A stretch of DNA of 57,783 bases from NCBI GenBank assembly GCA_026414185.1, contig JAOAJL010000004.1:15966-73748 (forward strand). Reading direction: 5' to 3'. The DNA is from Candidatus Micrarchaeota archaeon (GTDB taxonomy: Archaea; Micrarchaeota; Micrarchaeia; Anstonellales; Anstonellaceae). Both the position numbers and the translations under genes were made by a program. The notes under the pieces were generated by a model, which was given only the letters and a program-made list of their open reading frames with translations, ran no database searches and was not told where the DNA came from. Positions 11,036 to 50,760 of this stretch are shown here, one piece after another (the stretch's first letter is position 1; every line of letters starts with the position of its first letter).

Positions 11036-11062
11036 AAGACCTCCTCTTTGTCAGCCCAGTTT

Positions 11063-35505: not shown

Positions 35506-35576
35506 ACCGCCTTGGCCATAGCCGCACTTAACTTAACCTTATAAAGCTCCCAATCCAACTCAAAACGGGAGTGCGC

Positions 35577-36758
35577 ATGCGGGTGGCAATGCTGGGGTGG
35601 GAATTCCCGCCTTTTGTTTCAGGCGGGCTTGGTGTGCACTGCTTTGAGCTTACGCGCGCTCTTTGCGCAAGAGGGGTGGAGATAGACTTCTTCATGCCGG
35701 TTTCAGGAAAGGAAATCTCCTCCCCCATCCCAAACCTGAGGATAATAGAGGTGGCAAAGACCCAGCTTCGCCCCTATCTTTTCTTCTCAAAGTCTGGCCA
35801 GAGGGCAACCTATGGGCAGAACCTCATAAACGCTGTCAACGAATACTCCGCAAAGTGCGCAGAGACGGTCGCCGAATACGCAAGGCAGCGCCGCTACGAT
35901 CTTATCCACGCGCACGACTGGATGACTGCCAGAGCGGCTTCTGCGCTGAAAAAATCCCTCCTTCTTCCCCTTGTGCAGACATTCCACTCCACTGAGTTTG
36001 ACCGCACAAGCTGGCCGTGGGACTACATACTTGACATAGAGCGCGCAGCAGCGGCAAACGCAGACCTCATAATCGCGGTAAGCAGGCGCACCAAGGCGCA
36101 GGTGATGAGGCTCGGGGCTGACGAGCGCAAGATACGCGTTGTTTATAACGGCGTGGATATGAGAAGGTTTGCCTCAGCGCAGATTGACGGGCAGGCCGCC
36201 GATGATTTCAAGCGCAACCGCAGAGTAGTCCTTTTTTTGGGTAGGCTGACTGAGCAGAAGGGGCCCGTGCAGTTCCTTCACGCCGCAGCAAAGGTCCTCT
36301 CCAAGGACAAAAACGTGCTTTTCTTGGTGGCTGGCAAAGGCGAGCTTCTGCCCCTTCTCATCAACATGAGCCTGCAGCTTGGCATCTCTGAAAACGTCAG
36401 ATTCTTGGGCTATCTTTCAGAGGAGGACCAGCGCAGGATATACAAGCTTGCGGATGTCTATGTGATGCCATCAACCTCAGAGCCGTTTGGGATAACCGCC
36501 CTTGAGGCGATGAGCTGCGGCGTGCCAGTCATAATCAGCAAGACCTCCGGGGTGGCGGAGATAGCGAAATCCGCAATAAAGGTTGACTTTTGGGACATAA
36601 ACGCAATGGCGGCTAAGATACTTGCGGTGCTTTATCTGAAGCCTCTGGCAAAAACCATGGGAAAGATGGCATCGGGGGAGGCGGCTGGGCTGAGCTGGGA
36701 GAAAACTGCGGAAGAAACGCTCAAGGTATATAATGAGGCGCTTGCAGCAAGGGGATGA
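35577..36758 (+). CDS. Glycosyltransferase family 4, glycogen-synthase-like
   Basis: MLGWEFPPFVSGGLG, HAHDWMT, FLGRLTEQKG, PSTSEPFGITALEAM; next to GH57. Confidence 0.9.
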   Translation: MRVAMLGWEFPPFVSGGLGVHCFELTRALCARGVEIDFFMPVSGKEISSPIPNLRIIEVAKTQLRPYLFFSKSGQRATYGQNLINAVNEYSAKCAETVAEYARQRRYDLIHAHDWMTARAASALKKSLLLPLVQTFHSTEFDRTSWPWDYILDIERAAAANADLIIAVSRRTKAQVMRLGADERKIRVVYNGVDMRRFASAQIDGQAADDFKRNRRVVLFLGRLTEQKGPVQFLHAAAKVLSKDKNVLFLVAGKGELLPLLINMSLQLGISENVRFLGYLSEEDQRRIYKLADVYVMPSTSEPFGITALEAMSCGVPVIISKTSGVAEIAKSAIKVDFWDINAMAAKILAVLYLKPLAKTMGKMASGEAAGLSWEKTAEETLKVYNEALAARG

Positions 36759-36816
36759 GAAGTCCTCCTGGCGCAAGCGATATATAGCCGCAGCCGCATA
36801 ATCCTTCTTGGTCGTG

Positions 36817-38004
36817 ATGGAGATTTGCATTTATTTCCAGGTCCACCAGCCCATGCGGCTTGCGCCCTACTCCATATTCGGCGAAAGCGCCAGGGGAGGC
36901 GATGGCTACTTTGATGACGAGCTTAACAGCCAGATAATGCGCAAGGTGGCATCAAAGTGCTACATTCCCGCAAACTCGCTTATGCTCTCTCTTCTTGAAA
37001 AGCACCCAGAATTCCGCGTCTCTTACTCGCTGACCGGCGTTTTCTTGGAGCAGTGCAGGCAGTTTGCCCCGGAGGTGCTTGAAAGCTTCGCTGCGCTTGC
37101 GCGCACAGGCAGGGCGGAGTTCCTCTCGGAAACCTATTACCATTCCCTTGCCTACCTCTTTGCAGACAAGGACGAGTTCATAGCGCAGGTGGAGCTTCAC
37201 CAAAAGGCGATAGCCGAATTTGCGCAAACCTCGCCTGTCTTCCGCAACACAGAGGCGATGTTCTCAAACGACATTGCCTACCTTGTGGAGCGGCTGGGCT
37301 ACAGCGGGATACTTGCCGAGGGGCTTGAGCACATACTCGGCTGGCGCTCGCCGAACTACCTTTACGGCGTGCGCGGTTGCGAGAGGATAAAGGCTCTTTT
37401 GCGCCACTACAAGCTCTCCGACGACATCGGCTACCGCTTCTCCGCAAAATGGTGGAGCGAATACCCGCTGACTGCCGACAAGTATGCGCGCTGGCTTTCG
37501 CAGCTGCAAGGCGACTGCGTCAATATTTTCATGGACTATGAAACCTTCGGCGAGCACCACTGGGAGGACACGGGCATATTCAAGTTCCTGGAGGCGCTTC
37601 CTGCCGAGGTTGAGAAATATCCGCACCTGAGGTTCTCCACCCCCTCTGAACTTGTCCTTAAGTTCCCTGCCCGCGACGAGATAGACGTGCCGCAGGTGAT
37701 TTCATGGGCAGACATGGAGAGGGACACCTCCGCCTGGCTTGGCAATGACATGCAGAAAGATGCGTTTAGCCTTCTGGAATCCCTCGGCCCTGCGGTCAAG
37801 GAAACCAAGGATGCACAGCTTATCCGCACCTGGCGCATGCTTGGCAACTCGGACCACTTCTACTACATGTGCACAAAATCTCTTTCAGACCAGGACGTGC
37901 ACAACTACTTTTCTCCCTATGACTCCCCCTTTGACGCCTACATAAACTACATGAACATCCTGCGCGACTTTCAGGAAAAGCTGGCTGACGCCAAAAGGCG
38001 CTGA
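36817..38004 (+). CDS. Glycoside hydrolase family 57 (alpha-amylase)
   Basis: FQVHQP, LSETYYHS, FRNTE (nucleophile), FMDYETFGEH, SDHFYYM. Confidence 0.93.
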   Translation: MEICIYFQVHQPMRLAPYSIFGESARGGDGYFDDELNSQIMRKVASKCYIPANSLMLSLLEKHPEFRVSYSLTGVFLEQCRQFAPEVLESFAALARTGRAEFLSETYYHSLAYLFADKDEFIAQVELHQKAIAEFAQTSPVFRNTEAMFSNDIAYLVERLGYSGILAEGLEHILGWRSPNYLYGVRGCERIKALLRHYKLSDDIGYRFSAKWWSEYPLTADKYARWLSQLQGDCVNIFMDYETFGEHHWEDTGIFKFLEALPAEVEKYPHLRFSTPSELVLKFPARDEIDVPQVISWADMERDTSAWLGNDMQKDAFSLLESLGPAVKETKDAQLIRTWRMLGNSDHFYYMCTKSLSDQDVHNYFSPYDSPFDAYINYMNILRDFQEKLADAKRR

Positions 38005-38010
38005 ATAGAG

Positions 38011-38973
38011 CTAAAGGCGGTAGTAAGACTCAAGTCCGTCTTCCCTGCCGGCTGCGCTTCTCACGCTGAGCTTTGAGCCGCACAGGGTGAATGTCAGCTT
38101 AGGCGGCGTGGCGAATGGAATCTCATAGGTGAAGACAAGCTGGGAAGTGGGGCTTTTCATCTCCAAAAAAAGCGAAACCTCCTCCACCTTCGGCTTTATC
38201 TCATAACGCCCGTCCTGCGAGCCGAATGAGACCATCTCGGAGTCAAGCTTCCCAAAGTCAAGCCCGGCTGCGTAAAACATGCGCCAGATAAGCGGCTTTT
38301 GGTTTTCAGAAAGCTGCCTTCGCAGAAGCTCCGGGCGGATGCGAATGGAAATCTCCGCAAGCGTTATTATGGCGCCCCCTTGCACAAGCTGATATTCTAT
38401 GGGATGCGCGGAGGGCGATAGCGCCCCCAAGTCTTTGTCTTTGCGGTAGGTCTTGAAAAGGCAGTAGGTCCCTATGTCCTTGCCTTCAAAATACAGGATA
38501 TTCCGCTCTTCGTCGTGCTTTTCTAAGGAAAGCGTGCCTTCTGGCGGCAGGGTTTGGGCTATGAAATGCGAAACCGCGGCAACGGTTGAAAATTGCACGC
38601 CGTCAAGAAGCATCCTGCAGTAGAAACTTTTGTCCTGAAGCTGCTGGAAAAAATGCTCTGATTTGGCATTCTCAAGCCAGCTGTGCAGCTTCTGCGCCTC
38701 TGCGGCAAGGCGGAAAGCCTCTTCCTCCTTCTGCGTCTCCTCGCAGGCGAAAACGAGCTTTTTGAGCTTCTCCTGCGTTAGAAGAAGGGAGGCAAGAGCC
38801 TCCTTTTTTTCGCTGTCTTTCCTCTCCGTAAGCAGAAGCCCCTTTTCCCCAGCAAGCACAAACTGCCTTTTTGCCCCCTCAATGCCTTTTTTGAGGCGCG
38901 AAAATTCCTTAGTTGAGGCGTCAAGGATTCTCCTTGCGTGCCAAGCCGCCTCCTCAAGCTGCCTGCTTGCCAT
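38011..38973 (-). CDS. Hypothetical protein with N-terminal coiled coil
   Basis: 320-aa ORF filling the gap; heptad-rich N-terminal ~100 aa. Confidence 0.65.
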   Translation of the reverse strand: MASRQLEEAAWHARRILDASTKEFSRLKKGIEGAKRQFVLAGEKGLLLTERKDSEKKEALASLLLTQEKLKKLVFACEETQKEEEAFRLAAEAQKLHSWLENAKSEHFFQQLQDKSFYCRMLLDGVQFSTVAAVSHFIAQTLPPEGTLSLEKHDEERNILYFEGKDIGTYCLFKTYRKDKDLGALSPSAHPIEYQLVQGGAIITLAEISIRIRPELLRRQLSENQKPLIWRMFYAAGLDFGKLDSEMVSFGSQDGRYEIKPKVEEVSLFLEMKSPTSQLVFTYEIPFATPPKLTFTLCGSKLSVRSAAGREDGLESYYRL

Positions 38974-39095
38974 GGAGGTATTATGCCGCACTGCATTTTT
39001 AAACTTAGCTCTTTACCACTAAAAACCACAACTGGAAGTTTGGGTTGAGGCAAGCCCTGCATTAGATATATAATCCTCATTTCCATTTTTCGTTT

Positions 39096-41801
39096 ATGGC
39101 GTCTTTGGATGGAGGGGAAGTGCGCGGCATGGGCAGGCAGAAGATGCTTGCCACAGTCCAGATGCTCCGGACTGACGAGTCGCTTGGCGGCGCCATACTG
39201 GTTTTCCTTGGGACCCTCTCCCTGCTTCTGTCATTTCCCTTTTACCCCATTTACCTGTCCCCAATCCTGGCTGGGATTTGCGGGGCTGTCGCCTACCGCC
39301 AGCCGCCGCTTGGCACGATAATAGGGATGTTTTTTGCTTTTCCTGCTATTGCCTACCAGGCGCCTGTTCTTGCCTGGGTCTTCACCATCGTCCTTGCAAT
39401 CGCGCTGTTTGAAGCCTGGGAGCACTGGAGCACCATGTCTTTTCTGGAGCTTGCGGTGCTTGCCCCTTTCGCCCCCTTCCCATTCTCCTTCTTTTCGGGC
39501 TTTCTTTTTCTTGCCCTTGGAATTGCCGCGATGAAGTTTGGAAGCAAGCACTCCTTTGCGGTTTCCCTGCCAGCCATACTGGTTGTCCTTCTGCTTTCAA
39601 CCCTCTGGCTCTCTCCAAACTCATCATTCATAACGATAAGAAACGACTACAAGGGGGCATACGGGCCTGCGCTTGAAGAGCTCCAGAACAACAACAAGCC
39701 AGAAGTTGGGCTGGCTGAGCTTCCGATGGCATCGTCGGAGGCAGTCGGCTCCTTTTTTGACATCCAAAACGCCATGAAGGTGGCAGGGGCGCTCTCAAAG
39801 ATATGGGAGAACATTGCGAGGCTTCTTTTTTCTGACTACGCCCTTGTCCAGCTTGCGGTTTGGGCTGCCGCGCTTTTCCTTGTGGGCTTTCTGCCTGCTC
39901 GGATTGAGCATCCCTACAAGCAGACCATCTCTTCCGCTTCCCTCTTTCTTGTCCCAATCGTGAATTCCTTTGCCGCGCCTGCCTTCAACAACCCCTTTGA
40001 CCCGGCATCATTTGTCTATTGCGCCCTCTCGGTAGCCGCAATCGGCATCCTTGAATCGCAGGGGGTGAAGCTGTCCGGCGAGCGGCAGGCGATAAGGCGC
40101 GAAAAGCAAAAGTCATTCGGGAAATTCGGGGTGCAGGACTTGGGCGACTCTGAGGGAGTGGATTCGCTTTCCGATGTCGGCGGTTATGAGGATGTGAAAA
40201 ACGAGCTTCGCGAGGCGATTGTGGCGCCTTTGCAAAAGCGCGAGCTTGCCTACACCTACGGGATAAAGCCGCCAACAGGCATCCTGCTTTTTGGTCCGCC
40301 AGGCACGGGAAAGACCATGCTTATGAAGGCGCTTGCCAAGGAGCTTAACATCGGCTTTTACTACGTCAAGTGCTCGGATTTGCTCTCTGAGTGGTACGGG
40401 GAGAGCGAAAAGAATGTCGCGGAGGTCTTTGCAATCGCGCGCAAGAACGCCCCCTGCGTGCTGTTCTTTGACGAGATAGACTCTATCGGCAAGAAGCGCG
40501 ACGCCTACACCACGGATGATGTCGCGCCACGCATCATGAGCGTGATTCTGGAGGAGCTTGACGGATTTAAGGAGAAGAAAAAAACCGTGATAACGATAGG
40601 CGCCACCAACGCCCCGGACCAGCTGGACCCAGCCCTTATGCGCCCGGGCAGGATGGACAAGATAATATACATGCCGCTGCCTGACTTTGAGGCAAGAAAG
40701 GCGATATTCAAGGTCCATCTCTCCAAGCTGCCAACCGAAAAGGACATTGACTTTGGCAAGCTCGCCTCCATGACCGAGCGCTACTCAGGGGCGGATATAA
40801 AAAACATCTGCACGGAGGCAAGCCGCTTGGCTGCGCGCGATGCGCTGAAGGCAGACGTTGTCGTGCCGGTTTCCATGCGGCACATAATCAGCGTGATAAG
40901 GAAGATGAAGCCCTCGGTTTCCATTGACCAGCTTGAAACCTACAACAAGTTCAGAATGGACTACGAGCGAAGAAGCGAGGCAGAGGAGAAAAAGCCGGAT
41001 GAAAAAGGGGTGCGCTGGGAGGACGTGGCTGGCTTGGACGAGGTGCGGAAGGTGCTTCTTGAGGCAATTGAAATCCCACTTCTCCATGAGGATTTGATGG
41101 CTGAGATGGATGTGAAGCCCTCAAAAGGGCTGCTGCTTTTCGGACCGCCTGGGTGCGGAAAGACGATGATTGTGAAGGCGGCGGCAAATGAGCTTAACGC
41201 AAACTTCCTAACAATAACCGGCTCCGAGCTTATGCGCGGCCGCGAGCGGGACCCGCGGGCGTATGTGAAGGAGGTTTTCAACAGGGCTCGCGAGTCCGCC
41301 CCTGCCCTTGTCTTCATTGACGAGGTTGAGGCGCTTGCTCCCAACCGCGATGAATACCGCGGCGGCATATTGACCGAGCTTTTGCAGGAGCTTGACGGGG
41401 TAAAGGAGCTGAAAAATGTGATGATAATAGGGGCGACAAACAAGCCATCTGCGCTTGACCCAGCCATACTGCGCCCGGGGCGGTTTGACAAGATAATATA
41501 TATCCCGCCGCCTGACGAGCCTGCAAGAAGGCAGATATTCACCACGAACCTGGCAAAGTTCCTCAAGAACGTGGATGTGGACAGGCTTGCCAAGGCAACC
41601 GAGGGCTACTCAGGTGCGGACATCGCCTCAATCTGCCAGGAGGTTAAGATGCAGCTTGTCCGCGACAGGCTCAAAGGAGCCCCCTCCACCCTAACGACCG
41701 AGGCGGTGCTTCGGGTTATTTCCTCCCGGCGCCCCTCAATAACCCAGCGCGACTTGCGCGAGTATTTTGCATTCATGCAGGAGTATGGGGAGAGAAAGTA
41801 G
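39096..41801 (+). CDS. Tandem AAA+ ATPase (CDC48/p97-like D1-D2) fused to an N-terminal polytopic membrane domain, 901 aa
   Basis: About 9-10 hydrophobic helices in the first ~325 aa; GPPGTGKT / FFDEID / ALMRPGRMD and GPPGCGKT / FIDEVE / AILRPGRFD. Confidence 0.92.
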   Translation: MASLDGGEVRGMGRQKMLATVQMLRTDESLGGAILVFLGTLSLLLSFPFYPIYLSPILAGICGAVAYRQPPLGTIIGMFFAFPAIAYQAPVLAWVFTIVLAIALFEAWEHWSTMSFLELAVLAPFAPFPFSFFSGFLFLALGIAAMKFGSKHSFAVSLPAILVVLLLSTLWLSPNSSFITIRNDYKGAYGPALEELQNNNKPEVGLAELPMASSEAVGSFFDIQNAMKVAGALSKIWENIARLLFSDYALVQLAVWAAALFLVGFLPARIEHPYKQTISSASLFLVPIVNSFAAPAFNNPFDPASFVYCALSVAAIGILESQGVKLSGERQAIRREKQKSFGKFGVQDLGDSEGVDSLSDVGGYEDVKNELREAIVAPLQKRELAYTYGIKPPTGILLFGPPGTGKTMLMKALAKELNIGFYYVKCSDLLSEWYGESEKNVAEVFAIARKNAPCVLFFDEIDSIGKKRDAYTTDDVAPRIMSVILEELDGFKEKKKTVITIGATNAPDQLDPALMRPGRMDKIIYMPLPDFEARKAIFKVHLSKLPTEKDIDFGKLASMTERYSGADIKNICTEASRLAARDALKADVVVPVSMRHIISVIRKMKPSVSIDQLETYNKFRMDYERRSEAEEKKPDEKGVRWEDVAGLDEVRKVLLEAIEIPLLHEDLMAEMDVKPSKGLLLFGPPGCGKTMIVKAAANELNANFLTITGSELMRGRERDPRAYVKEVFNRARESAPALVFIDEVEALAPNRDEYRGGILTELLQELDGVKELKNVMIIGATNKPSALDPAILRPGRFDKIIYIPPPDEPARRQIFTTNLAKFLKNVDVDRLAKATEGYSGADIASICQEVKMQLVRDRLKGAPSTLTTEAVLRVISSRRPSITQRDLREYFAFMQEYGERK

Positions 41802-41937: not shown

Positions 41938-42035
41938 ATTCGTCAAAACCTGTGATTTTGTAAAGCGAATTGACGAATATATATGTTTTTTTTATAAACA
42001 AATCTTTTAAAGATTAGAGAAAGCTTTTAAATATA
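41938..42035 (+). promoter_or_regulatory. S-layer gene promoter region: BRE-TATA plus two palindromes
   Basis: GAGAAAGCTTTTAAATA at 42017-42033; AATCTTT-T-AAAGATT at 42001-42015; ATTCGTCAA...TTGACGAAT at 41938-41946 and 41970-41978. Confidence 0.6.
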
Positions 42036-42195
42036 CTTCAAGACAGCCTATCCGTCTCCTATGAGAGGCGCGTGGCGAAGCGCCAAGAGGGGAAAGAAAG
42101 GACATGGAATGAAAGGAAAGAATAAAGGGCAAAAAATGAATGTCGTCGCTAAGATTTTTTGCCATGCCCTAAAAGACGACATTTGAGGTGAATAA

Positions 42196-45030
42196 ATGAA
42201 AGGGATAAACGTGAGGAAAATCGCGGCCATTGCTGGCGCGGGAATCCTCGCCTTTGGCGCCATCGCGGCGGCTGACGTGGTTTACGGCAGCACGCAGCTG
42301 GTGGACCAGAACGGACAGCCAACGGTGAAGATTTACGTGGGCAGCAAGGCGGCAGTTTCCGACGGTGTTGCTGCAGCCAACATCGCCGCGAAAATTGCCA
42401 ACGAGGCGTACAAGAGCTCAACGCTCACAGCCTCGCTCAGCGGGACTCCGACCTGCACAGTAGGCGCAGGCGTGAGTGGCACCGGAACCTGCTCCATTAT
42501 TGAGAGCAGCAAGAAGGTGACCCTTGAAGTGACGCTCCCGGGAACGATTGCGGGAACGCACACCTTCAAGACGCTGATAACAGACACGATAGACAGAATG
42601 CTGCAGAACCGCGTCTCCACGACTCCTGACGACGTGTACAATGAGAGCATGTCAGTGTCTGACACGACCGGCACGAGGCCCTCGCCACTGCGTGGAACCG
42701 GAGCGACAAACGCCCAAAAGCAGCTTCTTTACAAGATTGGCTCCGGTGAGTTCTCCGCATTTGCGGACTACTCTGTGGTGGATACGCAGGCAGCTGGCAC
42801 CTCCTACACCGAGGAGCAGAGCTTCTGGGTAGGAAGCACCTACTCCCCGCAAGGAGTAAGGTATGACTCCATAGAAAAGGATGTCACCGTAAACAAGTAC
42901 TCTGCCCTGGTATACAGCTTGAGGTTCCTTGGCAACGACTTTGGAATACCGGTCTGCACAGGCGACCTGAACTCCTCTGCGTCCGATGACTGGACTTCAT
43001 GCGGCTCTGAGTCCAACTCAATGACGGAGAAGCACCGCGTGAAGATAAAGTTCATGGGAAGCGAGTGGATAATCTCCGAGATGAGAGACCCCAACGTCGC
43101 AAACCCCAGCCTGACTGCGGTTGTGAACGGAGGGCAGATTAAGCTTGCCAAGGAGTCCAAGTACGGCATCATCAATGTCGGGCAGGTCCTTGATGCGGGA
43201 ACCTTCAAGATACGCCTGGCTGACATATCGGTTGCAGTGGGAGCGGAGAACAAGCACCCTGCAATCATAGACATCCTTGATGCCAACGAGGCGGTCGTGG
43301 GACAGATTCAGGTTGACCCCGGCACCACCTACACCTTCACGCAAAGCGGGACTGGCAACAGCGTGAAAATCCACGTGTACAAGACTGCGCCTGGATTCAC
43401 CCTGAATGCCAAGTGGGCTGAGATGGCTATCTACTCTGACGAGATAACCCTCAAGGACGGAAGCCGCTACAACCTTGTTTCCACAACCGACACTGACAAG
43501 GACTACAAGGTGTCGCTTCTGTGGAAGAACCGCGACTTCCCGGGAGGATCCAACCCCTCTGCCGCGTCCAACAAGACCGACTCGCTGCGCGAGATTGTCA
43601 TCTACAGGACGGACAACTTTGAGAAGGCAAAGGCTGGCGACTCTGTCGGCTTCCTAAAGAGCAAGCCCACCTTCAAGGTGACCTACCAGGGTCTTGACCT
43701 GACGGATGACGACTATGTGCCTCTGACGCTTGAGTCTCTTGGCCCAGACACCTACAGCGTTCAGATAAACGGAGGCGCTGCGGGTGAAACTGCGGCGTGC
43801 GCATCAGGCACATACGGCGAACGCGCAAACGCCCGCTGGATTAAAATCTACGCAGGCGGAAGCCAGCTTCTTGGAGGTGCAGGCAGCATCATAGCAGGCG
43901 GCTACATGCTGGACACCGTCTACTACGACCCGATTGGGCTTGTTCTCCTTAGTGGCACTGCTGGACAGGAGACCTGGACTGGTGGTTGGGGTAACGGCTC
44001 TGCCCTTACGCCATCCTATGCGGCTAACTGGACCAACTGGTCCATACGCTCGCCCAAGGTCTTCTGGAAGGTGCCTGGAAGGGACTGCTACAACTGGGCA
44101 AACGTGACAAGCTCCAGCGCCCTGACCAGCATGGTGAGGTTTGACACGGCAGGAGACAACTCCGCGGCGCAGGGTGCGCTGTTCTTCGTAGGAATGGGCA
44201 CGCCCAACCCGTACAACGTGACAAACTTCAGCATAGACGCAAGCACCTACACTGGTGCAATCGTGCTGCAGGAGGATGCAGGCAAGGTCAACACAGTGTC
44301 CAACAACCTTGTCTACACTGCCTGGCCGATTGTGACTGACGCCACGACAGTGGGCTCAGGCGCAATCAGGCTCCAGCCGACCTCGTCCACCACGCAGAGA
44401 GTCTACTACAAGGGGCTTTCTGTTGGTGAGTGGGCAACTGCACAGTCTGTTGACCTGAAGTTCGTCTCCGAGCGCGGCAGCCAGTTCACCGGCGTGTCTT
44501 CCACCTCGGCGTCTGCCAAGATTGCCAAGAAGGTCGGCCTGGCACAGTTCCAGTTCGCCCTTGCGGACACTGCGGCTGCGTCCACCGGCGAGGAGTATGT
44601 CCTCGGCGTTGGAGACACCAAGGTCTTCGGCGGAGTGACTGTGAAGGTGAAGGCGATTGATGCAACTGCGGGAAGCTGCTCGGTCCTCGGACCTGGCGGA
44701 ACTCCTGCCTGCACGGTCAACACCGGCTCAGTCAGCGCCGTGATCCAGCCCAACAATGCCGCAACCGTTGAGGTTTCCGAGCCCTACAAGCTCACCAGCA
44801 ACATGGTGATGCTTGACAGCGCAGGAGCCTCTGCCGGCGTGGCAATCCTCGTTGGAGGCCCAGAAGTCAACACCCTGACTGCCGATGCCCTCAAGGGCAG
44901 CGAGGTGGACTTCAACGTGGAGTCGGTTGTTGTCAAGGAGATTGGCAACAAGATAGTGGTGGCTGGAAAGACTGCCCAGGACACGATGACTGCTGCAGAG
45001 CAGTTCATTGCTGGCATCAAGAGGCAGTAA
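42196..45030 (+). CDS. S-layer protein (Methanococcales-type S_layer_N/C), 944 aa
   Basis: MKGINVRKIAAIAGAG signal; VGSKAAVSDGVAAANIA N-terminal motif; ILVGGPEVNTL and IVVAGKTAQDTMTAAEQF C-terminal motifs; several N-x-S/T sequons; RBS GAGGTGA; C-rich third codon positions. Confidence 0.9.
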   Translation: MKGINVRKIAAIAGAGILAFGAIAAADVVYGSTQLVDQNGQPTVKIYVGSKAAVSDGVAAANIAAKIANEAYKSSTLTASLSGTPTCTVGAGVSGTGTCSIIESSKKVTLEVTLPGTIAGTHTFKTLITDTIDRMLQNRVSTTPDDVYNESMSVSDTTGTRPSPLRGTGATNAQKQLLYKIGSGEFSAFADYSVVDTQAAGTSYTEEQSFWVGSTYSPQGVRYDSIEKDVTVNKYSALVYSLRFLGNDFGIPVCTGDLNSSASDDWTSCGSESNSMTEKHRVKIKFMGSEWIISEMRDPNVANPSLTAVVNGGQIKLAKESKYGIINVGQVLDAGTFKIRLADISVAVGAENKHPAIIDILDANEAVVGQIQVDPGTTYTFTQSGTGNSVKIHVYKTAPGFTLNAKWAEMAIYSDEITLKDGSRYNLVSTTDTDKDYKVSLLWKNRDFPGGSNPSAASNKTDSLREIVIYRTDNFEKAKAGDSVGFLKSKPTFKVTYQGLDLTDDDYVPLTLESLGPDTYSVQINGGAAGETAACASGTYGERANARWIKIYAGGSQLLGGAGSIIAGGYMLDTVYYDPIGLVLLSGTAGQETWTGGWGNGSALTPSYAANWTNWSIRSPKVFWKVPGRDCYNWANVTSSSALTSMVRFDTAGDNSAAQGALFFVGMGTPNPYNVTNFSIDASTYTGAIVLQEDAGKVNTVSNNLVYTAWPIVTDATTVGSGAIRLQPTSSTTQRVYYKGLSVGEWATAQSVDLKFVSERGSQFTGVSSTSASAKIAKKVGLAQFQFALADTAAASTGEEYVLGVGDTKVFGGVTVKVKAIDATAGSCSVLGPGGTPACTVNTGSVSAVIQPNNAATVEVSEPYKLTSNMVMLDSAGASAGVAILVGGPEVNTLTADALKGSEVDFNVESVVVKEIGNKIVVAGKTAQDTMTAAEQFIAGIKRQ

Positions 45031-45044
45031 AGGCGTCCGGCAAA

Positions 45045-45096
45045 TTCGGGGCGAAAGCCCCGAACCCCCTTTTTTTGTTTTTTTTTCTTGTTTTTT
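45045..45096 (+). terminator. Hairpin plus long T tract after the S-layer gene
   Basis: TTCGGGGC-GAAA-GCCCCGAA followed by CCCCTTTTTTTGTTTTTTTTTCTTGTTTTTT. Confidence 0.85.
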
Positions 45097-45212
45097 ACCG
45101 CCCGCAGACTTACAAAGGATAGGGGCTTTCCTTTACTTACACTATTATAAACTGTGGGTGGGAAAAAAGGATGTTTTCCGCAAAGGCGACCTTGCGGGAA
45201 AAGGTGGTGCTG

Positions 45213-47312
45213 ATGAGGAATTGCCTGTTCATTCTTGCGTTGTTAGCGCTCTTGCCTGCTTCTTTCCCCTCATTTTCCATCAACCCCTATCTTTATGCTT
45301 CCGAGTCCTCCGCGAAAGTTGATGCCATCACCTTCCAGCACGGCGAGCAGACTGCGAGGCTTTACAAGATTGACGGGCAGGAGGCACTGCTGACTCTTGA
45401 GGATCAGCTTGTTGAAAAAAAGGAGGACATCTCTGCGATAATGACTGAGTATTACAGGCGCGAGTACTACCCTTCGGCAGAGGAGCTTGCAGAGATTAAG
45501 GCGCAGGCAGACAGCTTCAACAGAAGCAGGAACAGCATGACGCAATATGGTCCTGCTGAAAAGACATGCCGCGCAGGAGGAACCTTCCTTGATTACAAGC
45601 CCTGCAATGACCTTCACTCATGCACGGCGACCGCATCGCTTGTCTGCTACGTGACTGGTGCGGAGGGTTGCGTTGTGGATGTGCTTGCCACCTACATACT
45701 TGACTACAAGCAGGGGATAGACGCCCTTGATGCTGCCTACTCCAAGTTTGACTCTGCCTACAAGTCATTTTCTCCCCAAAGCCTTTCTTATGCCCTTGAC
45801 CAGATGGATGCTGCATTCTCAGAGATGAAAGCCGCTGCCGACAGAGTGGCGCAAAACAAGCTGAGGTTTCCGGAGAGAGGCGCATCTGCCTGCCGAGACT
45901 GCCTTGGGGTCTGCCCAGAGCCGAAATTTGACTATGCCGCAATCAGCTTGGGAAAGGAAAAGGTGGCAAAGCTGAAAGCCAAGGCTGCGCCTTATGCGAC
46001 CTTGCAGCAGACGATAGACCGGCTTGCGATTTCAACGCAGGAGAGGATAAAATACAGGGAAGGCGAGGAGAAGGCGCTTGTGTTTGCGCCGAAGTTCCGG
46101 GCTTCGCGTGAGAAGTTTGGCGGGCTAAAATCGCAGGCTATTGAGGCAAAGGCGCTTGTTTCGGACACGGATTTCGTTTCTGCCGCAAACTCTTTTCTGG
46201 ACAAGGAGCAGCAGCTTGAGCAGAAGCTTGAATTGCGGGACTTTGCAGGCTTTGACGCCCTCCTTTCGTCCTATGAGGCGGCAGGCAGGAACCTGCAGGC
46301 GATGATAAACAACTCCACGGCGGCATACAGGGTGGCTGCCGAGGCGCAGGATGAGGCAAACGACAGGATAATAGAGGCAAGCTGGCAGGTTAACAGGCTG
46401 AGCGAGGCTTCGGTAAGCTCCTACAACAGCCTTGCGACGAGGAAAAGCGCTGTTGATTCCTCGTTCAAGCCGCCGCTTTCAAGCGCTCAGTATGCCGAGC
46501 TTGCGAAAAAATACTCCCAGCTTGCAGAAGATGCCGAAGCATACATACAGGCGTCAGGCTCGGTCCAAAGCTCCATTTTCACCCTTGGCAACCGCTTCGG
46601 CAAGGCAAGCGTTGACGGGGCGATGGCGCTTGCGTCAAGCATGATGCCGGTTTCCTTCAAAACAAGGCAGATGATGGCAAAATATGCCCCGCCCCTGCTG
46701 CTTGCCGTGGTGGACCTGGCTATCCTGATTGTGGTGCTTGCAGTCTCAGCCGGCTTGTTTTACTACACGCACGGCTTTTTCAGAAGCAGGCTGTTCATTT
46801 CAGGCTGGGCAATCAGCCTTATTGGGCTTATTGTCCTTATGCTCATAGGCTCGGTCGGCTTTTATTCCATAGTGCTTTCAACGGAGAGATTCACCTCTTT
46901 TTCTGATTTCATGGAGACGGTGAAGGCTGCGGACAAGGTTGCGGTGATAGTGGAGGAGCCTTCAACAAATCCCTCTGCCGCTGCGGCGATGAGGCAGTGC
47001 GCGCAGCAGATTGAGGCGCAGATGAAGGCGCGGGGCAAGCAGACGCTAAAATACTACCTTTCGGGCGGAAGCTGCACCGTGATAACGCCCAGGCTTGGGG
47101 CAAACAACACCACGGCATACGACACGCGGCAAAGCGCAGGGGTTTCCTGCCTTGACAGCATGCCTGACATACCTGTCTTTGACTTGCAGTATTCTGACGA
47201 GAACAAGGCGCCGGTCTTCACCACTGTCGGCGCAAAGCAGGCGATATTCAAAAACACCGAGGCGGTATACGCGAGAAAGCCGCAGTGCACGCCTGCCGAT
47301 GTCCTCGGCTGA
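45213..47312 (+). CDS. Secreted/membrane protein: Cys-rich head, long helical stalk, TM hairpin, 4-Cys C-terminal domain
   Basis: Signal peptide MRNCLFILALLALLPAS; long Ala/Glu/Lys/Gln-rich helices; two TM segments near aa 510-570. Confidence 0.8.
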   Translation: MRNCLFILALLALLPASFPSFSINPYLYASESSAKVDAITFQHGEQTARLYKIDGQEALLTLEDQLVEKKEDISAIMTEYYRREYYPSAEELAEIKAQADSFNRSRNSMTQYGPAEKTCRAGGTFLDYKPCNDLHSCTATASLVCYVTGAEGCVVDVLATYILDYKQGIDALDAAYSKFDSAYKSFSPQSLSYALDQMDAAFSEMKAAADRVAQNKLRFPERGASACRDCLGVCPEPKFDYAAISLGKEKVAKLKAKAAPYATLQQTIDRLAISTQERIKYREGEEKALVFAPKFRASREKFGGLKSQAIEAKALVSDTDFVSAANSFLDKEQQLEQKLELRDFAGFDALLSSYEAAGRNLQAMINNSTAAYRVAAEAQDEANDRIIEASWQVNRLSEASVSSYNSLATRKSAVDSSFKPPLSSAQYAELAKKYSQLAEDAEAYIQASGSVQSSIFTLGNRFGKASVDGAMALASSMMPVSFKTRQMMAKYAPPLLLAVVDLAILIVVLAVSAGLFYYTHGFFRSRLFISGWAISLIGLIVLMLIGSVGFYSIVLSTERFTSFSDFMETVKAADKVAVIVEEPSTNPSAAAAMRQCAQQIEAQMKARGKQTLKYYLSGGSCTVITPRLGANNTTAYDTRQSAGVSCLDSMPDIPVFDLQYSDENKAPVFTTVGAKQAIFKNTEAVYARKPQCTPADVLG

Positions 47313-47330
47313 GGCGGGGGTTTGGGACGA

Positions 47331-47822
47331 ATGGCGCTTTCAGAGAAGGACAGGCAGGTCGCATTTGCCCTGCTGGCTCTGCTTTCAGCCGCCATGGCGG
47401 CTTATGTGCTTCTGACTCTTCCTGCGCAGGACAAGGAGGCGAGTGTTGAGGAGTTTGCCTCGGCGGTGCTTTCATCCAAAACAGCCGGCATCCTCATGGA
47501 CGCGCGCGGATTGAGCGCGCAGGATGCGAGGATCGTCTATCAGTGTGGCACGGACATAGCCTCAGGAAGCCTCTTTGGCATGCGGCGGCTCCAGATTATC
47601 GGCTGCGAATCGGACGAGAAGTGCCTTTCTGCCTTCTCCGATTCCAACTCAACCGAGAAGATGACTTATTTTCAGGCAAGAAAGGCGCTTGAAAAAATCC
47701 CCTACATCCAGATAAGGAAGGGGAATTCGCCGGCGAGGTTTTTTGAGAGGCATGCGGAGATTGAGATTGACGAGGGCTATGGGCGGGAGTGCAGGCTGAA
47801 TGTGGCGCTGACAAGGCAGTGA
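47331..47822 (+). CDS. Single-TM protein, apparent paralogue of the upstream gene's C-terminal domain
   Basis: FASAVLSSKTAGILMD...VYQCGTDI vs FMETVKAADKVAVIVE...MRQCAQQI; four Cys in similar order. Confidence 0.7.
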   Translation: MALSEKDRQVAFALLALLSAAMAAYVLLTLPAQDKEASVEEFASAVLSSKTAGILMDARGLSAQDARIVYQCGTDIASGSLFGMRRLQIIGCESDEKCLSAFSDSNSTEKMTYFQARKALEKIPYIQIRKGNSPARFFERHAEIEIDEGYGRECRLNVALTRQ

Positions 47823-48981: not shown

Positions 48982-50760
48982 ATGGGTTGGAAGAAGGGTG
49001 CGGCGGCACTGCTTGTCATAGCCGTCGCTTTTTGCTCACTTCTGCATGCCGCATGCCCGACAGCCAGCCGGCAGATATACCTTGCCGCGGTGACTGGTGA
49101 GGAAAGCGGGGGCGTTTTCAGGCTTGAGGTGGAAATACGTCCGGGAAGCGGAACCATCTACACTGCCATAAGCCCAAAGACAGGCTTTCTGACGCAGGAG
49201 TCAGAGCAGGCGGCTGTGGAGTATGCCTTCAAAAGCACAGGGGCGCAGTTGGCGGAGTGCGATGTCCTTTTCCGGCTGGCAGGCCCTTTTGGGGAGAATG
49301 TCGTTGACGGGCCTTCTGCTGGCGGGGCTATGGCGGTTGCTCTTCGGGCGGCGATTCTCAACAGGAGCATAAGGCAGGATGTTGTCATTACCGGCACCAT
49401 CTCCCCAGGGGGCAAGATAGGTCCTGTCGGCGGAATAATGGAAAAAGCCCTCGGAGCCGCAGAGGCGGGTGCGCGCTACTTCCTTGCGCCCAAGCTGCAG
49501 CTTCATGAAGCCCTCCTGATTTCCTCGCTTGCAAAAACAAAGGAATTTTATGCGATAGAAGTTGGGGACATATCGGAGGCTGAGGAGGTCCTCTTTTCGG
49601 ACTACTCGCAGAACTTCAGCTCCAGGTTTGTGCCGCAGTCATCCCCACTGCCAAAAAACCTTCCCCCGATAAGCCAGGATGCAGCTCTTGCGCGCTTTGG
49701 CAAAATTTCCAAGAAAGTGGTTGACGAGCTTGAAGCAAAGAAAAAGGCGCTTTTTCCCGAAGGCGGACAAAGCCCGCAGCTTTCGCAGATGCGCCAGTAT
49801 TTTGATGATGAGATAGCAAAGTACAGGAAGCTGCTTGGGCTTGGCTACTACTTCACAGCCGCCAACTCGGCATTTCTCCTCTCCATAGACGCGGAATATG
49901 TCAAGATGGGGGATGCGGCTGGGCTTGATTTTGCAGGAAGCGTTGAGGAGGTGGGCAGGTGCATAGCAAGCCTCAAGCCGCCCAAAAAAACCCACGAGAA
50001 TTTCCACTGGGCTGTTGGGTCGGACTTGCGCAGGATATGGGCGCAAAAGAGGATGAATGAGAGCCTTGAAAGGCAGGATGCGCAGGGGCACTACACGACA
50101 ATCCGCGACCTTCTTTATTCTTATAGCTGGTGCGGCATCTCGCGCGAGCTTGCCTCAGAGGCGGATTCCATAGGGGGCAGGCAAGCCGACGAATCCGTCC
50201 TTGTGCAGCTTGCCTCAAAGAAGATTTCCGAGGCTGAGGAGAGGCTGGCGCATGCACCAAAGCTTGACTACGACGCCCTGTGGCATCTTGAAGCTGCGCT
50301 TGCGGCAAACCAAAGCGGCAGATACGGCGCGGCGATATACGATGCGACCTATGCGAAGGCGATGCAGGAGGCGTCCTCTGAAAGCAACGTAAGCGCCTCT
50401 GCGCAGAGGCTTGTCTTGGCAGACAGGAAAAGCCTGTGGGGCAAGATATACCAGGGGCAAGGCGTCTTCCTTTATTATCAGGCAAAGGAAAGCGGGTTTG
50501 ATTTGACTGATGCCTACCGCGTGCTGAAATATGCCTCTGAGCTTGACAGGTCCGCCCAGGAGATGGACAGGGAGCTTGCGGCGCAGCTTGTGCAGAAGGA
50601 GGCGGCGGCTGTCGCTGAGGCTGGCGGGCAAAGCCCAGCTGCGAAAGAATATGTTCCTATTGAGCAGGACTACCCGCTTCTTCTCTTTCTTACATTTTCA
50701 GTTGTGGCTTTCGCACTTGGGGTGGGCTATCGTCTTGCTTTAAGGATGAAAAAGGGCTGA
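48982..50760 (+). CDS. Secreted, membrane-anchored Lon-like Ser-Lys protease without ATPase (COG1750-like)
   Basis: Signal peptide; VDGPSAGGAM catalytic Ser motif; TGTISPGGKIGPVGGIMEK; C-terminal TM plus basic tail. Confidence 0.85.
   Translation: MGWKKGAAALLVIAVAFCSLLHAACPTASRQIYLAAVTGEESGGVFRLEVEIRPGSGTIYTAISPKTGFLTQESEQAAVEYAFKSTGAQLAECDVLFRLAGPFGENVVDGPSAGGAMAVALRAAILNRSIRQDVVITGTISPGGKIGPVGGIMEKALGAAEAGARYFLAPKLQLHEALLISSLAKTKEFYAIEVGDISEAEEVLFSDYSQNFSSRFVPQSSPLPKNLPPISQDAALARFGKISKKVVDELEAKKKALFPEGGQSPQLSQMRQYFDDEIAKYRKLLGLGYYFTAANSAFLLSIDAEYVKMGDAAGLDFAGSVEEVGRCIASLKPPKKTHENFHWAVGSDLRRIWAQKRMNESLERQDAQGHYTTIRDLLYSYSWCGISRELASEADSIGGRQADESVLVQLASKKISEAEERLAHAPKLDYDALWHLEAALAANQSGRYGAAIYDATYAKAMQEASSESNVSASAQRLVLADRKSLWGKIYQGQGVFLYYQAKESGFDLTDAYRVLKYASELDRSAQEMDRELAAQLVQKEAAAVAEAGGQSPAAKEYVPIEQDYPLLLFLTFSVVAFALGVGYRLALRMKKG

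Follow-up and report, generated by a model that had tools for sequence, protein, structure and literature searches.

A tandem AAA ATPase with a polytopic membrane domain: a possible membrane-integral unfoldase of Micrarchaeota

The locus and its gene order

The window, that is, the whole stretch of 57,783 nt of Micrarchaeota DNA analyzed here, belongs to a metagenome-type assembly of 35 contigs that is 87% complete. It contains on the forward strand an ORF combining a membrane domain with two AAA modules, hereafter abbreviated as D1 and D2, which is followed by the genes for an S-layer protein and two membrane proteins. The features of this region are as follows.

39065-39074, + strand: TATA-like box GATATATAAT, about 27 nt before the ATG at 39096 (read from the sequence)
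39096-41801, + strand: whole ORF of 901 aa, consisting of membrane domain, D1 and D2 (ORF and family searches)
41986-42036, + strand: run of eight T (41986-41993) and box TTTTAAATATA (42026-42036) in the 395-nt spacer (read from the sequence)
42196-45030, + strand: gene for an S-layer protein of 944 aa (PF05124, E 1.7e-15; TIGR01564)
45171-47312, + strand: 713-aa membrane protein, conserved third gene of the cluster (sequence and comparison of loci)
47322-47822, + strand: 166-aa protein with one TM helix, conserved as fourth gene of the cluster (sequence and comparison of loci)

The public gene call for an identical protein begins at M12 (nt 39129, giving 890 aa), which leaves an uncertainty of 11 codons in the true start of the ATPase ORF; the position of GATATATAAT fits a leaderless start at 39096 and suggests a transcript with no leader or a short one. 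The divergent gene lying upstream (38011-38991) has neither a Pfam match nor a homologue in 40 related loci, and was rejected on these grounds as a part of the system.

The S-layer gene adjoins the ATPase gene, as the original prediction had it, and occupies the same position directly after it in 18 of 40 diverse loci, which belong to 10 families and include homologues whose membrane domain shares as little as 36% identity. The usual order in these loci is ATPase, S-layer protein, a protein of about 700 aa and one of about 160 aa. The S-layer protein of the window bears an ordinary N-terminal signal-like sequence, and the 713-aa protein consists of a signal or TM segment, a long helical ectodomain, a TM hairpin at about residues 515-575 and a C-terminal domain. 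The adjacency is missing from the remaining 22 loci, including those of whole families that keep both genes; families without it retain the gene for the ~700-aa protein elsewhere in the genome, and lineages lacking the S-layer link vary in the genes that surround the ATPase gene. The spacer carries a terminator-like T-run and a TATA- or promoter-like box, TTTTAAATATA, suggesting that the S-layer gene has its own promoter. An obligatory operon with the S-layer gene was rejected on the combined basis of the 22 loci, the separately located ~700-aa homologues and these spacer elements. Because the adjacency is patchy and the spacer has elements of its own, the link between ATPase and S-layer gene may reflect inherited gene order rather than function.

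AAA modules and membrane domain

Pfam searches with the 901-aa protein retrieved two AAA modules of PF00004 (E 1e-82; best stretch at residues 396-528, second at about 679-810) together with two AAA_lid_3 domains. The parts of the protein are listed below in their order along the gene.

39174-40067, + strand: polytopic membrane domain, residues 27-324, 9-10 TM helices (hydropathy, AlphaFold, alignment)
39609-39839, + strand: long acidic loop with short helices, residues 172-248 (AlphaFold secondary structure)
40068-40160, + strand: basic linker, residues 325-355, with a helix at 329-338 and a conserved K-x-F-x-K-F-G motif (alignment, model)
40161-40973, + strand: D1, residues 356-626, with lid and Vps4_C-like tail KPSVS...Y..F..DYERR (family searches)
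40293-40316, + strand: D1 Walker A GPPGTGKT, residues 400-407 (63-64 of 64 homologues at every position)
40386-40409, + strand: D1 pore loop 1 SEWYGESE, W433-Y434-G435 (alignment)
40458-40475, + strand: D1 Walker B VLFFDE, residues 455-460 (motif reading, 64-member alignment)
41016-41798, + strand: D2, residues 641-901, with lid and tail RRPSIT...Y..F..EYGERK (family searches, alignment)
41142-41165, + strand: D2 Walker A GPPGCGKT, residues 683-690 (motif reading, 64-member alignment)
41226-41261, + strand: D2 pore-loop-1 position ELMRGRERDPRA, basic and variable, with no aromatic-hydrophobic-Gly motif (64-homologue alignment)
41307-41324, + strand: D2 Walker B LVFIDE, residues 738-743, with D742 and E743 in 64 of 64 homologues
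41784-41798, + strand: conserved C-terminus YGERK, which is not an HbYX proteasome-docking motif (alignment)

Both modules possess the P-loop, Walker A and B, sensor-1 Asn and SRH with two Arg fingers that characterize the classical AAA family (PF00004), the SRH arginines lying within PGRMD (517-521) of D1 and PGRFD (794-798) of D2. In D1 and D2 alike, hardly any variation is seen in the Walker motifs, the sensor-1 residues (N505, N782) or the Arg fingers (R516/R519, R793/R796), each position being kept in 62-64 of 64 homologues; the two modules, which are 43% identical to each other, are predicted to be competent for ATP hydrolysis. The intact motifs and the Pfam matches bear out the original view of two complete AAA modules placed after some 325 aa of polytopic membrane domain. 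Pfam and NCBIfam searches detected no Cdc48 N-domain or any other family in residues 1-347 and no protease domain in the protein, in agreement with the absences noted initially.

The two rings differ in their pore loops. The aromatic-hydrophobic-Gly motif is present in D1 of 52 of the 64 homologues versus none of 64 for D2, which establishes that the asymmetry first read from this single protein, with an aromatic loop in D1 and its loss in D2, is real and family-wide. The D1 loop follows the pattern S-x-[WYF]-[YVF]-G-E throughout the family, with G435 in 64/64 and the strict motif missing from 12 members; many lineages show a semi-conserved K-x-G-Y in the D2 loop that could represent a non-canonical grip. 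Inteins of homologues are inserted in the D1 pore loop, between E436 and S437, and at a second site immediately before C454, ahead of the D1 Walker B, and this indicates that the pore loop and Walker B of D1 are highly constrained sites. To our knowledge, the aromatic pore loop grips the polypeptide in all AAA translocases that have been studied. It is well supported that the protein is a classical AAA motor of two rings, directly tethered to a membrane domain that is large and conserved, and that D1 is the ring gripping the substrate.

Hydropathy analysis of the membrane domain finds 7-9 hydrophobic segments within residues 27-324, and its AlphaFold model (pLDDT 83, pTM 0.77) comprises nine long helices, an N-terminal amphipathic helix and a loop of about 75 residues at 172-248. 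If helix 90-125 crosses the membrane twice, the distribution of K+R in 64 homologues fits 10 passes with the N- and the C-terminus in the cytoplasm; otherwise it fits 9. The initial count of about 10 TM helices is acceptable on this evidence, with 9 as the alternative. In the topology deduced from K+R/D+E counts and from the C-terminus having to be cytoplasmic, the acidic loop 172-248 is predicted to be extracytoplasmic. The full monomer model has a pTM of 0.43 and linkers with pLDDT below 50, as at residues 338-352; its inter-domain geometry is to be regarded as unreliable, and the linker 325-355 tethering D1 to the membrane domain is probably flexible.

Alignment of the membrane domain shows a mean column identity of 52% and 21 invariant positions (among them Y50, A66, A84, Y87, Q88, W94, L117, P124, F125, G149, S150, W171, P191, Q252, W256, L260 and Q276), with conserved polar residues inside the helices (Q88, Q252, Q276 and E106) and no invariant Cys or His among the homologues. 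Judged from the alignment, such conservation is far beyond the needs of a simple anchor. Pfam searches with the domain alone and with 26 homologues at E<=1 returned nothing above noise (DUF1003, E 0.17), PDB sequences yielded 0 matches to a profile of the domain, and the Foldseek comparison proposed at the outset as a check found no fold match in the PDB (best E 0.85, TM <=0.21). Derlin, rhomboid and Hrd1 likewise show no sequence or fold similarity to the domain in Pfam and in Foldseek against PDB. Two further candidates were discarded: an exosortase or archaeosortase, considered because of the S-layer neighbour, for which there is no Pfam match at E<=1 in 26 homologues and no invariant Cys or His to form the Cys/Arg/His catalytic triad of EpsH-type domains; and an internal repeat, since hhalign between thirds of the domain gave probabilities <1%.

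A domain that is the most lineage-specific yet strongly conserved part of the protein, and carries polar residues within its helices, might itself be a transporter or an enzyme, acting for example on lipids or other host-derived molecules, with the AAA rings powering or regulating it instead of unfolding proteins. Such a role would suit the dependence of Micrarchaeota on their hosts (PMC8975820). It is nevertheless very unlikely, given that the domain resembles no transporter or enzyme family in sequence or fold and contains no repeat of the kind common in transporters, and that the protein-gripping pore loop and the intein sites of D1 favour the threading of a polypeptide. Moreover, we know of no AAA protein of the classical clade that drives small-molecule transport.

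Distribution, ancestry and candidate mechanism

Of 301 genomes sampled from the phylum, 236 carry the membrane domain, as do 103 of 129 genera; it is nearly always present as a single copy within a frame of about 900 aa. Since the window derives from a metagenome-type assembly, we considered that a membrane-protein gene might have been joined to a CDC48 gene by chimeric assembly or a mis-called fusion, one of the two outcomes that would have undone the original prediction. This explanation is refuted by the uninterrupted ~900-aa frame in more than 200 independent genomes, complete single-contig ones included, and there is a separate canonical CDC48 in the same genome; its probability is negligible. 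Only 72 representatives among 1.84 billion proteins match the membrane-domain profile, and the matches with a source name are essentially all from Micrarchaeota, the exceptions being one weak partial match in Thermoplasmata and one locus labelled 'ainarchaeum'.

A canonical CDC48 accompanies the membrane AAA in the present genome and in 16 of 16 related genomes examined, and each of these 16 genomes encodes three classical AAA proteins. In a tree of single modules, which was built without PAN, FtsH or Vps4 outgroups and leaves the deep branching order unresolved, CDC48-D1 and CDC48-D2 cluster together (100/95) apart from both membrane-AAA clades. The membrane AAA consequently appears as a separate, ancient paralogue of CDC48. 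The best stretches of both modules align to CDC48-D2 rather than CDC48-D1; yet recent copying of CDC48-D2 was rejected as their origin, because both fall outside the well-supported clade of CDC48-D1 and CDC48-D2. Forms with a single AAA module (619-627 aa) nest inside the D1 clade, which indicates that D2 is dispensable in some lineages and led us to reject the single-AAA form as ancestral. Several representatives of about 650 aa are probably truncated, their cluster mates having about 920 aa. The gene is kept in most genomes of a phylum with drastically reduced genomes, and this retention argues for an important function.

Taken together, the data are compatible with an integral membrane protein that acts as a type-II unfoldase of the classical AAA family and is specific to Micrarchaeota, a reading that we regard as having an even chance of being correct. 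It probably works by pulling other proteins from the cell membrane or across it. The mechanism we favour, with equally balanced confidence, is that of a protease-less unfoldase embedded in the membrane, or dislocase, threading its substrate through D1; we infer both this function and its direction. The oligomeric state, the course of threading and any pore in the membrane domain would all follow the example of other AAA proteins. As in classical AAA proteins, the assembly would be a hexamer with 54-60 TM helices in a ring and the entry face of D1 directly below the membrane. The substrate would be engaged at or within the membrane domain, whether it is itself a membrane protein or a chain that has passed through this domain to the cytoplasmic face, and the staircase of W433-Y434 in D1 would then thread it towards the cytoplasm in the D1-to-D2 direction of Cdc48/VAT. 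D2 would serve as a second ATPase ring adding force, or stabilizing and regulating the hexamer, without a canonical grip. Because there is neither a protease domain nor an HbYX tail, substrates would be released or remodelled rather than fed directly to the 20S proteasome; the role of proteasomal ATPase is already filled in this genome, which has genes for a 20S proteasome and for a CDC48 with the C-terminus ...SMYR. The conserved gene order suggests that clients may include components of the cell envelope, such as the S-layer protein, the pair of membrane proteins whose genes follow, or both.

The same Cdc48/p97-like cassette, joined to the membrane domain by a flexible linker, could alternatively act as a general segregase, with the polytopic domain only localizing the ATPase and recruiting adaptors, and the motor disassembling complexes at the cytoplasmic face in the manner of NSF or of Cdc48 with its adaptors, without any conduit. 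Division, secretion or pilus machinery would be possible clients; the variable gene context outside the S-layer-linked lineages fits this option, and with three classical AAA proteins in each tiny genome (16 genomes) one could serve membrane-proximal tasks. We consider it rather unlikely, since a mere anchor needs no 9-10 helices with 21 invariant positions, polar helix residues and 52% mean identity, and known tethered AAA proteins make do with one or two helices.

In 18 of 40 loci the gene immediately precedes those for the S-layer protein and two membrane proteins of the envelope, which could also point to transport in the opposite direction. Archaea lack SecA, and an outward translocase or insertase would compensate for this, the motor taking up the S-layer protein, or its partners, in the cytoplasm and pushing them through the membrane-domain ring so that they enter or cross the membrane; Bcs1 provides the precedent of a membrane-fused AAA able to export a protein. 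How the S-layer protein of Micrarchaeum is anchored is an open question (doi 10.1101/2021.04.28.441871, PMC8975820). Classical AAA proteins, however, thread from the N-terminal to the C-terminal face, which here means from membrane to cytoplasm, and the ring that would receive the substrate, D2, has no canonical pore loop in 64/64 homologues and is lost in some lineages. With the signal-like sequence of the S-layer protein, the lack of a Bcs1_N domain and the absence of the adjacency from many families also speaking against it, export appears distinctly unlikely.

Dislocation towards the cytoplasm can be extended to a retrotranslocon or import machine made of a single archaeal polypeptide, in which six membrane domains (54-60 helices) would form a protein-conducting assembly under the S-layer and D1 would pull polypeptides into the cytoplasm. 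Candidate substrates would be envelope proteins recycled or remodelled at sites of host contact or division, or proteins derived from the host. This extension is speculative and, in our estimate, improbable. If the membrane domain does form a conduit, no simpler retrotranslocation machine would be known, and the protein would be a tractable system for studying how an AAA motor is coupled to a membrane channel. That the gene so often neighbours the S-layer gene bears on a still open question about the sole Micrarchaeon in culture, namely how its S-layer is anchored and remodelled during host contact.

Comparison with known AAA systems

Membrane-protein extraction is usually performed by single-ring AAA proteins with one or two anchor helices, such as FtsH and Msp1, or by the soluble double-ring Cdc48/p97 recruited to Derlin/Hrd1; Bcs1, too, has one ring and no more than 1-2 TM helices. 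The second outcome that would have undermined the original prediction, a characterized family with the architecture described here, was not found in Pfam, NCBIfam, PDB sequences, PDB folds and the literature searched, where no paper describing the membrane-AAA family came to light. The fusion in one chain of a double-ring motor with a large membrane domain whose fold is unlike any in the PDB is new relative to these families and literature. In databases, 'AAA family ATPase' and 'VCP-like ATPase' are the only names given to the homologous proteins, and the family and its membrane domain therefore deserve a definition of their own.

Cdc48/p97/VAT proteins are the best matches of the ATPase cassette in both sequence (E ~1e-116 to 1e-122) and fold (E 5e-37, ~35% identity over ~580 columns). 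They share with it the D1-D2 arrangement of tandem classical modules with lids, Walker A/B, sensor-1 and double Arg fingers and, by analogy, probably the hexamer that threads a polypeptide from D1 to D2. In the Micrarchaeota protein, however, the double-psi-barrel N-domain is replaced by a polytopic membrane domain of 325 aa, the HbYX tail is missing, and the pore-loop asymmetry is reversed with respect to human p97, D1 being aromatic and D2 not. Both modules lie nearer to CDC48-D2 than to CDC48-D1, yet form their own clades outside the two. Against TIGR01243, the model for Cdc48/p97/VAT, the protein scores 520 bits versus a cut-off of 802.65, which places it outside that family and argues against orthology with CDC48. 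It also lies outside the proteasomal ATPases (PAN, and CDC48/AMA with HbYX), having the family C-terminus ...EYGERK, no OB or coiled-coil domain and scores below the cut-offs of the PAN models.

FtsH/Yme1/Afg3 proteins similarly hold an AAA ring directly below the membrane by N-terminal TM helices and pull membrane-protein substrates into the pore with an aromatic loop; among known systems they come closest to the mechanism proposed here. FtsH combines a single AAA ring with one or two TM helices, which as a pair flank a periplasmic domain, and with a C-terminal M41 zinc protease, versus two rings, 9-10 helices and no protease here; the Micrarchaeota protein scores 412 bits against TIGR01241 (cut-off 600) and has no match to peptidase_M41. 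Msp1/ATAD1 and Bcs1 are likewise protease-less AAA proteins anchored in the membrane, the former extracting and the latter translocating proteins, but each has only one TM helix and one AAA ring. Bcs1 additionally has a specific N-domain and forms heptamers; Bcs1_N matched neither the protein nor 26 homologues, and no Msp1-type domain was detected in the protein, which differs in architecture from Msp1/ATAD1 and has its best sequence matches among Cdc48-type proteins, not the meiotic clade.

Among archaeal proteins, MBA1 and MBA2 of Sulfolobales are the one group named 'membrane-bound AAA', reportedly described by Serek-Heuberger et al. in 2009. According to PMC3493965, they are membrane-attached, lack a folded N-domain and constitute a lineage-restricted cluster apart from CDC48, PAN, AMA and Vps4, features in which the present family resembles them. 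The MBA proteins are anchored by one TM helix in a short extension at the N-terminus and are not known outside Sulfolobales; judged by this description, the polytopic domain would set the Micrarchaeota family apart.

The p97-Derlin/Hrd1 system of the eukaryotic ER also couples a polytopic membrane component to a double-ring Cdc48 motor, an analogy that is functional only. Its components are distinct proteins, held together through adaptors and ubiquitin, whereas those of Micrarchaeota form one polypeptide; should the retrotranslocon reading prove true, the membrane AAA would be a prokaryotic, ubiquitin-independent counterpart of p97-Derlin/Hrd1 and a part of the symbiotic lifestyle of Micrarchaeota.

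A polytopic domain fused to tandem AAA modules

A 901-aa protein is indeed encoded by the ORF at 39096-41801 (+), on DNA that is archaeal, with archaeal SRP RNA and 5S rRNA present, from a 0.96-Mb genome that is 87% complete. Pfam identifies two complete classical AAA modules in it (PF00004, E 1e-82), hereafter D1 and D2, together with two AAA_lid_3 domains, while residues 1-347 match no family; the top-ranked NCBIfam models are CDC48, PAN, FtsH and CdvC, each under its curated cut-off. The original prediction of two AAA modules with Walker motifs and arginine fingers, placed behind a polytopic membrane domain and lacking a protease domain, is thus borne out by Pfam, by hydropathy, by AlphaFold helices within residues 27-324 and by the following motifs.

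Catalytic motifs of the 901-aa protein
Residues 400-407 (D1) and 683-690 (D2): Walker A
Residues 455-460 (D1) and 738-743 (D2): Walker B
Within residues 517-521 (D1) and 794-798 (D2): SRH arginines

By hydropathy, the stretch from residue 27 to residue 324 contains seven to nine hydrophobic segments. The alignment of the membrane domain has a mean column identity of 52% and 21 invariant positions, including polar and aromatic residues within helices (Y50, Y87, Q88, W94, Q252, W256 and Q276), and the AlphaFold model computed with the same alignment is confident (pLDDT 83, pTM 0.77), with nine long helices after an amphipathic one at the N-terminus and a loop of about 75 residues (172-248). The domain has no internal repeat. 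Foldseek, the check proposed for this domain, found no relative in the PDB (best E 0.85, TM <=0.21); its profile did not match any PDB sequence, and Pfam at E<=1 returned only noise for 26 members. The domain is undescribed, conserved and polytopic. Since the AAA modules must be cytoplasmic, loop 172-248 is predicted to face outside. Lysine and arginine are enriched in the N-terminal tail, in loops 66-72, 147-153 and 268-275 and beyond residue 322, and almost absent from the remaining short loops, a pattern that fits 10 passes, placing both termini inside, provided that helix 90-125 spans the membrane twice, or nine passes with the N-terminus outside if it does so once.

Searching with the membrane domain alone retrieved 61 proteins, nearly all of which share both the architecture and the length of about 900 aa, even at membrane-domain identities as low as 36%, and every organism-named match belongs to Micrarchaeota lineages. 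A profile built from 26 membrane domains found only 72 matches among 1.84 billion representative proteins; within the phylum, 236 of the 301 genomes sampled gave a match (138 of the 176 of high quality; 103 of 129 genera), the domain being almost always single-copy and within an open frame of 900-960 aa. Scanning of named genomes yielded 48 loci, assigned to Micrarchaeota, Micrarchaeia, Anstonellaceae, Burarchaeum and Fermentimicrarchaeum, except for a few labelled merely 'archaeon' and one labelled 'ainarchaeum'. Because the fusion is conserved across so many related genomes, the possibility of an assembly chimera is refuted. No description of the membrane AAA was found in the literature searched on Micrarchaeota or DPANN dealing with AAA, Cdc48, S-layer or transmembrane proteins.

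Catalytic cassette, pore loops and inteins

For motif conservation, 64 full-length members drawn from many families were scored. The Walker A and B motifs, the sensor-1 Asn and both arginine fingers are retained in 62-64 of 64 at each position, in D1 and D2 alike, with the catalytic Lys, the Asp-Glu pair and the arginine fingers present in all 64; on this near-invariance, both rings should bind and hydrolyse ATP. The pore loops are asymmetric, as originally proposed: the aromatic-hydrophobic-Gly motif occurs in 52/64 members in D1, where G435 is invariant (64/64), and in none of the 64 in D2. In the clade of the window protein, D2 has a basic loop of variable sequence (ELMRGRERDPRAY); outside that clade the loop follows a loose K-x-G-Y pattern. 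The canonical substrate-gripping loop is thus confined to the membrane-proximal ring. A transporter or enzyme driven by the AAA rings is disfavoured, given this protein-gripping loop and the lack of any similarity of the membrane domain in the Pfam and PDB searches.

Inteins are typically inserted at highly constrained sites. The homologues show two intein sites, both of which fit D1 being the working ring: one within the D1 pore loop, separating E436 from S437, and one at the Walker-B strand of D1, immediately ahead of C454. Intein-bearing homologues are P0032, P0033, P0034, P0039, P0041, P0042, P0049, P0050, P0069 and P0071, the last (1912 aa) being occupied at both sites. These inteins are large and contain LAGLIDADG domains; of the open frames with the membrane domain in genomes of the phylum, about 12 have ~1360-1450 aa and one has 1958 aa.

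Relation to CDC48 and single-ring forms

D1 and D2 share 43% identity and a common tail, [KR]PS[VI][ST]...Y..F...ER, and each aligns most closely with the D2 half of p97/VAT. The best structural matches of the full-length model are p97/CDC48 chains (E 5e-37, ~35% identity over ~580 columns). Its domains are well folded, but with low-confidence linkers (338-352 and 629-636) and a pTM of 0.43 the model does not fix their arrangement. Two other classical AAA proteins are encoded in the same genome.

Other classical AAA proteins of the genome
L001 376-2559 (contig 28): canonical CDC48, C-terminus ...SMYR (HbYX-like)
L004 712-2367 (contig 1): TPR-repeat and single-AAA protein, 551 aa

This CDC48 (727 aa) has the N-domain and aromatic pore loops in both rings. 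As it ends in SMYR, and the genome has two 20S proteasome subunit genes and no AAA match of PAN strength was found in it, CDC48 is probably the proteasomal ATPase of the organism. The same three classical AAA proteins were present in 16/16 diverse genomes examined, the third of the phylum being a single-AAA homologue of the TPR protein with ~540-590 aa.

An IQ-TREE phylogeny of 90 AAA modules, which did not include other AAA clades as outgroups, resolved four clades: family D1 (94/88), family D2, CDC48-D1 (100/99) and CDC48-D2 (99/95). The two CDC48 clades join each other (100/95) apart from those of the family, the deeper order not being resolved, a topology that identifies the membrane AAA as an old, separate paralogue. 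That it could be the Cdc48 of the organism is ruled out by these separate clades and by the true CDC48 in the same genome. In one single-contig 1.2-Mb genome, the CDC48 match (G238:C1:1056249-1058417) carries seven in-frame stops (3 TGA, 1 TAG, 3 TAA), the sign perhaps of a pseudogene or of poor sequence quality; in that genome the gene for the membrane AAA is intact.

A 619-aa single-AAA form (P0101 cluster, Anstonellaceae) nests within the family-D1 clade, which indicates that its D2 was lost secondarily, judging from the tree. Another form of 627 aa belongs to the window's own family (L021, a related locus, 10127-12010 (-)), and is still followed by the S-layer gene. These forms are natural experiments that show D2 to be dispensable.

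Genomic neighbourhood and possible function

Genes surrounding the ATPase gene in the window
35571-38004: GT4/starch-synthase-like glycosyltransferase and GH57 glycoside hydrolase, directly upstream
38011-38991 (-): orphan ORF, 326 aa, divergent orientation
42196-45030: S-layer protein, 944 aa (PF05124, TIGR01564), directly after the ATPase gene
After the S-layer gene: 713-aa protein with signal/TM, long helical ectodomain, TM hairpin (~515-575) and C-terminal domain
After the 713-aa protein gene: 166-aa single-TM protein
48982-50760: 592-aa ORF with a Lon_C proteolytic domain near the N-terminus (residues 42-172) and no AAA module

The adjacency to an S-layer gene noted originally holds, and this gene forms with the following two a conserved envelope cluster (42196-47822), found in the same order near homologues with 36-62% membrane-domain identity. 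Using HMMs built for the analysis, we surveyed 40 loci of different families. In 18, representing 10 families, the ATPase gene is immediately followed by the S-layer gene and in most cases then by the genes for the 713-aa and 166-aa proteins. No neighbour is conserved in the remaining 22 loci, among them every sampled member of five families; in four of these five a homologue of the 713-aa protein is kept elsewhere in the genome. Within the 395-nt spacer between the ATPase and S-layer genes lie a T8 run and a TATA-like box; a separate TATA-like box precedes the ATPase gene by 27 nt. The linkage of the two genes is thus old and common without being obligatory, and probably does not amount to an operon.

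One candidate for a stalk or anchor of the S-layer is the 713-aa protein. Profile comparison suggests that the 166-aa protein resembles part of it, a likeness not seen by plain BLAST (E 6.6); the HMM of the 166-aa protein gave 30 matches in 16 loci, about two ORFs per locus. The S-layer protein of Ca. Micrarchaeum harzensis has been described with its anchoring given as unknown, in papers that do not mention the ATPase (doi 10.1101/2021.04.28.441871, PMC8975820).

Synteny of the GT4/GH57 pair with the ATPase gene extends to the related loci L014 and L015 and to 6/40 others. The 326-aa ORF, unmatched in Pfam and NCBIfam and without a homologue among 40 related loci, is an orphan or very fast-evolving gene; L015 has a 348-aa ORF at the equivalent position. 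A gene similar to the 592-aa ORF occupies the equivalent position in L015 and three other loci.

By analogy with the classical AAA translocases that have been studied, the membrane AAA would assemble as a hexamer in which D1, the ring turned to the membrane domain, threads polypeptide in the direction of the cytoplasm, with D2 helping or stabilising. Since both a protease domain and an HbYX tail are absent, it would act as an extractor or remodeller, not as a protease or proteasome cap. A rival reading is a tethered segregase, whose membrane domain would form no conduit. Ring polarity and the degenerate D2 loop argue against another, a Bcs1-like translocase moving envelope proteins outward. 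The dislocase or translocase originally proposed is supported in part, by the double-ring motor and the membrane domain; its suggested link to the envelope has gene order as its one basis.

The family is a phylum-wide, single-copy protein combining a novel conserved polytopic domain with two hydrolysis-competent Cdc48-like AAA modules. The sole named archaeal 'membrane-bound AAA' group, as presented in a paper citing it (PMC3493965), is MBA of the Sulfolobales. With its undescribed membrane domain, the protein would represent a new form of membrane-embedded type-II AAA unfoldase, a function we infer by analogy with the classical AAA translocases.
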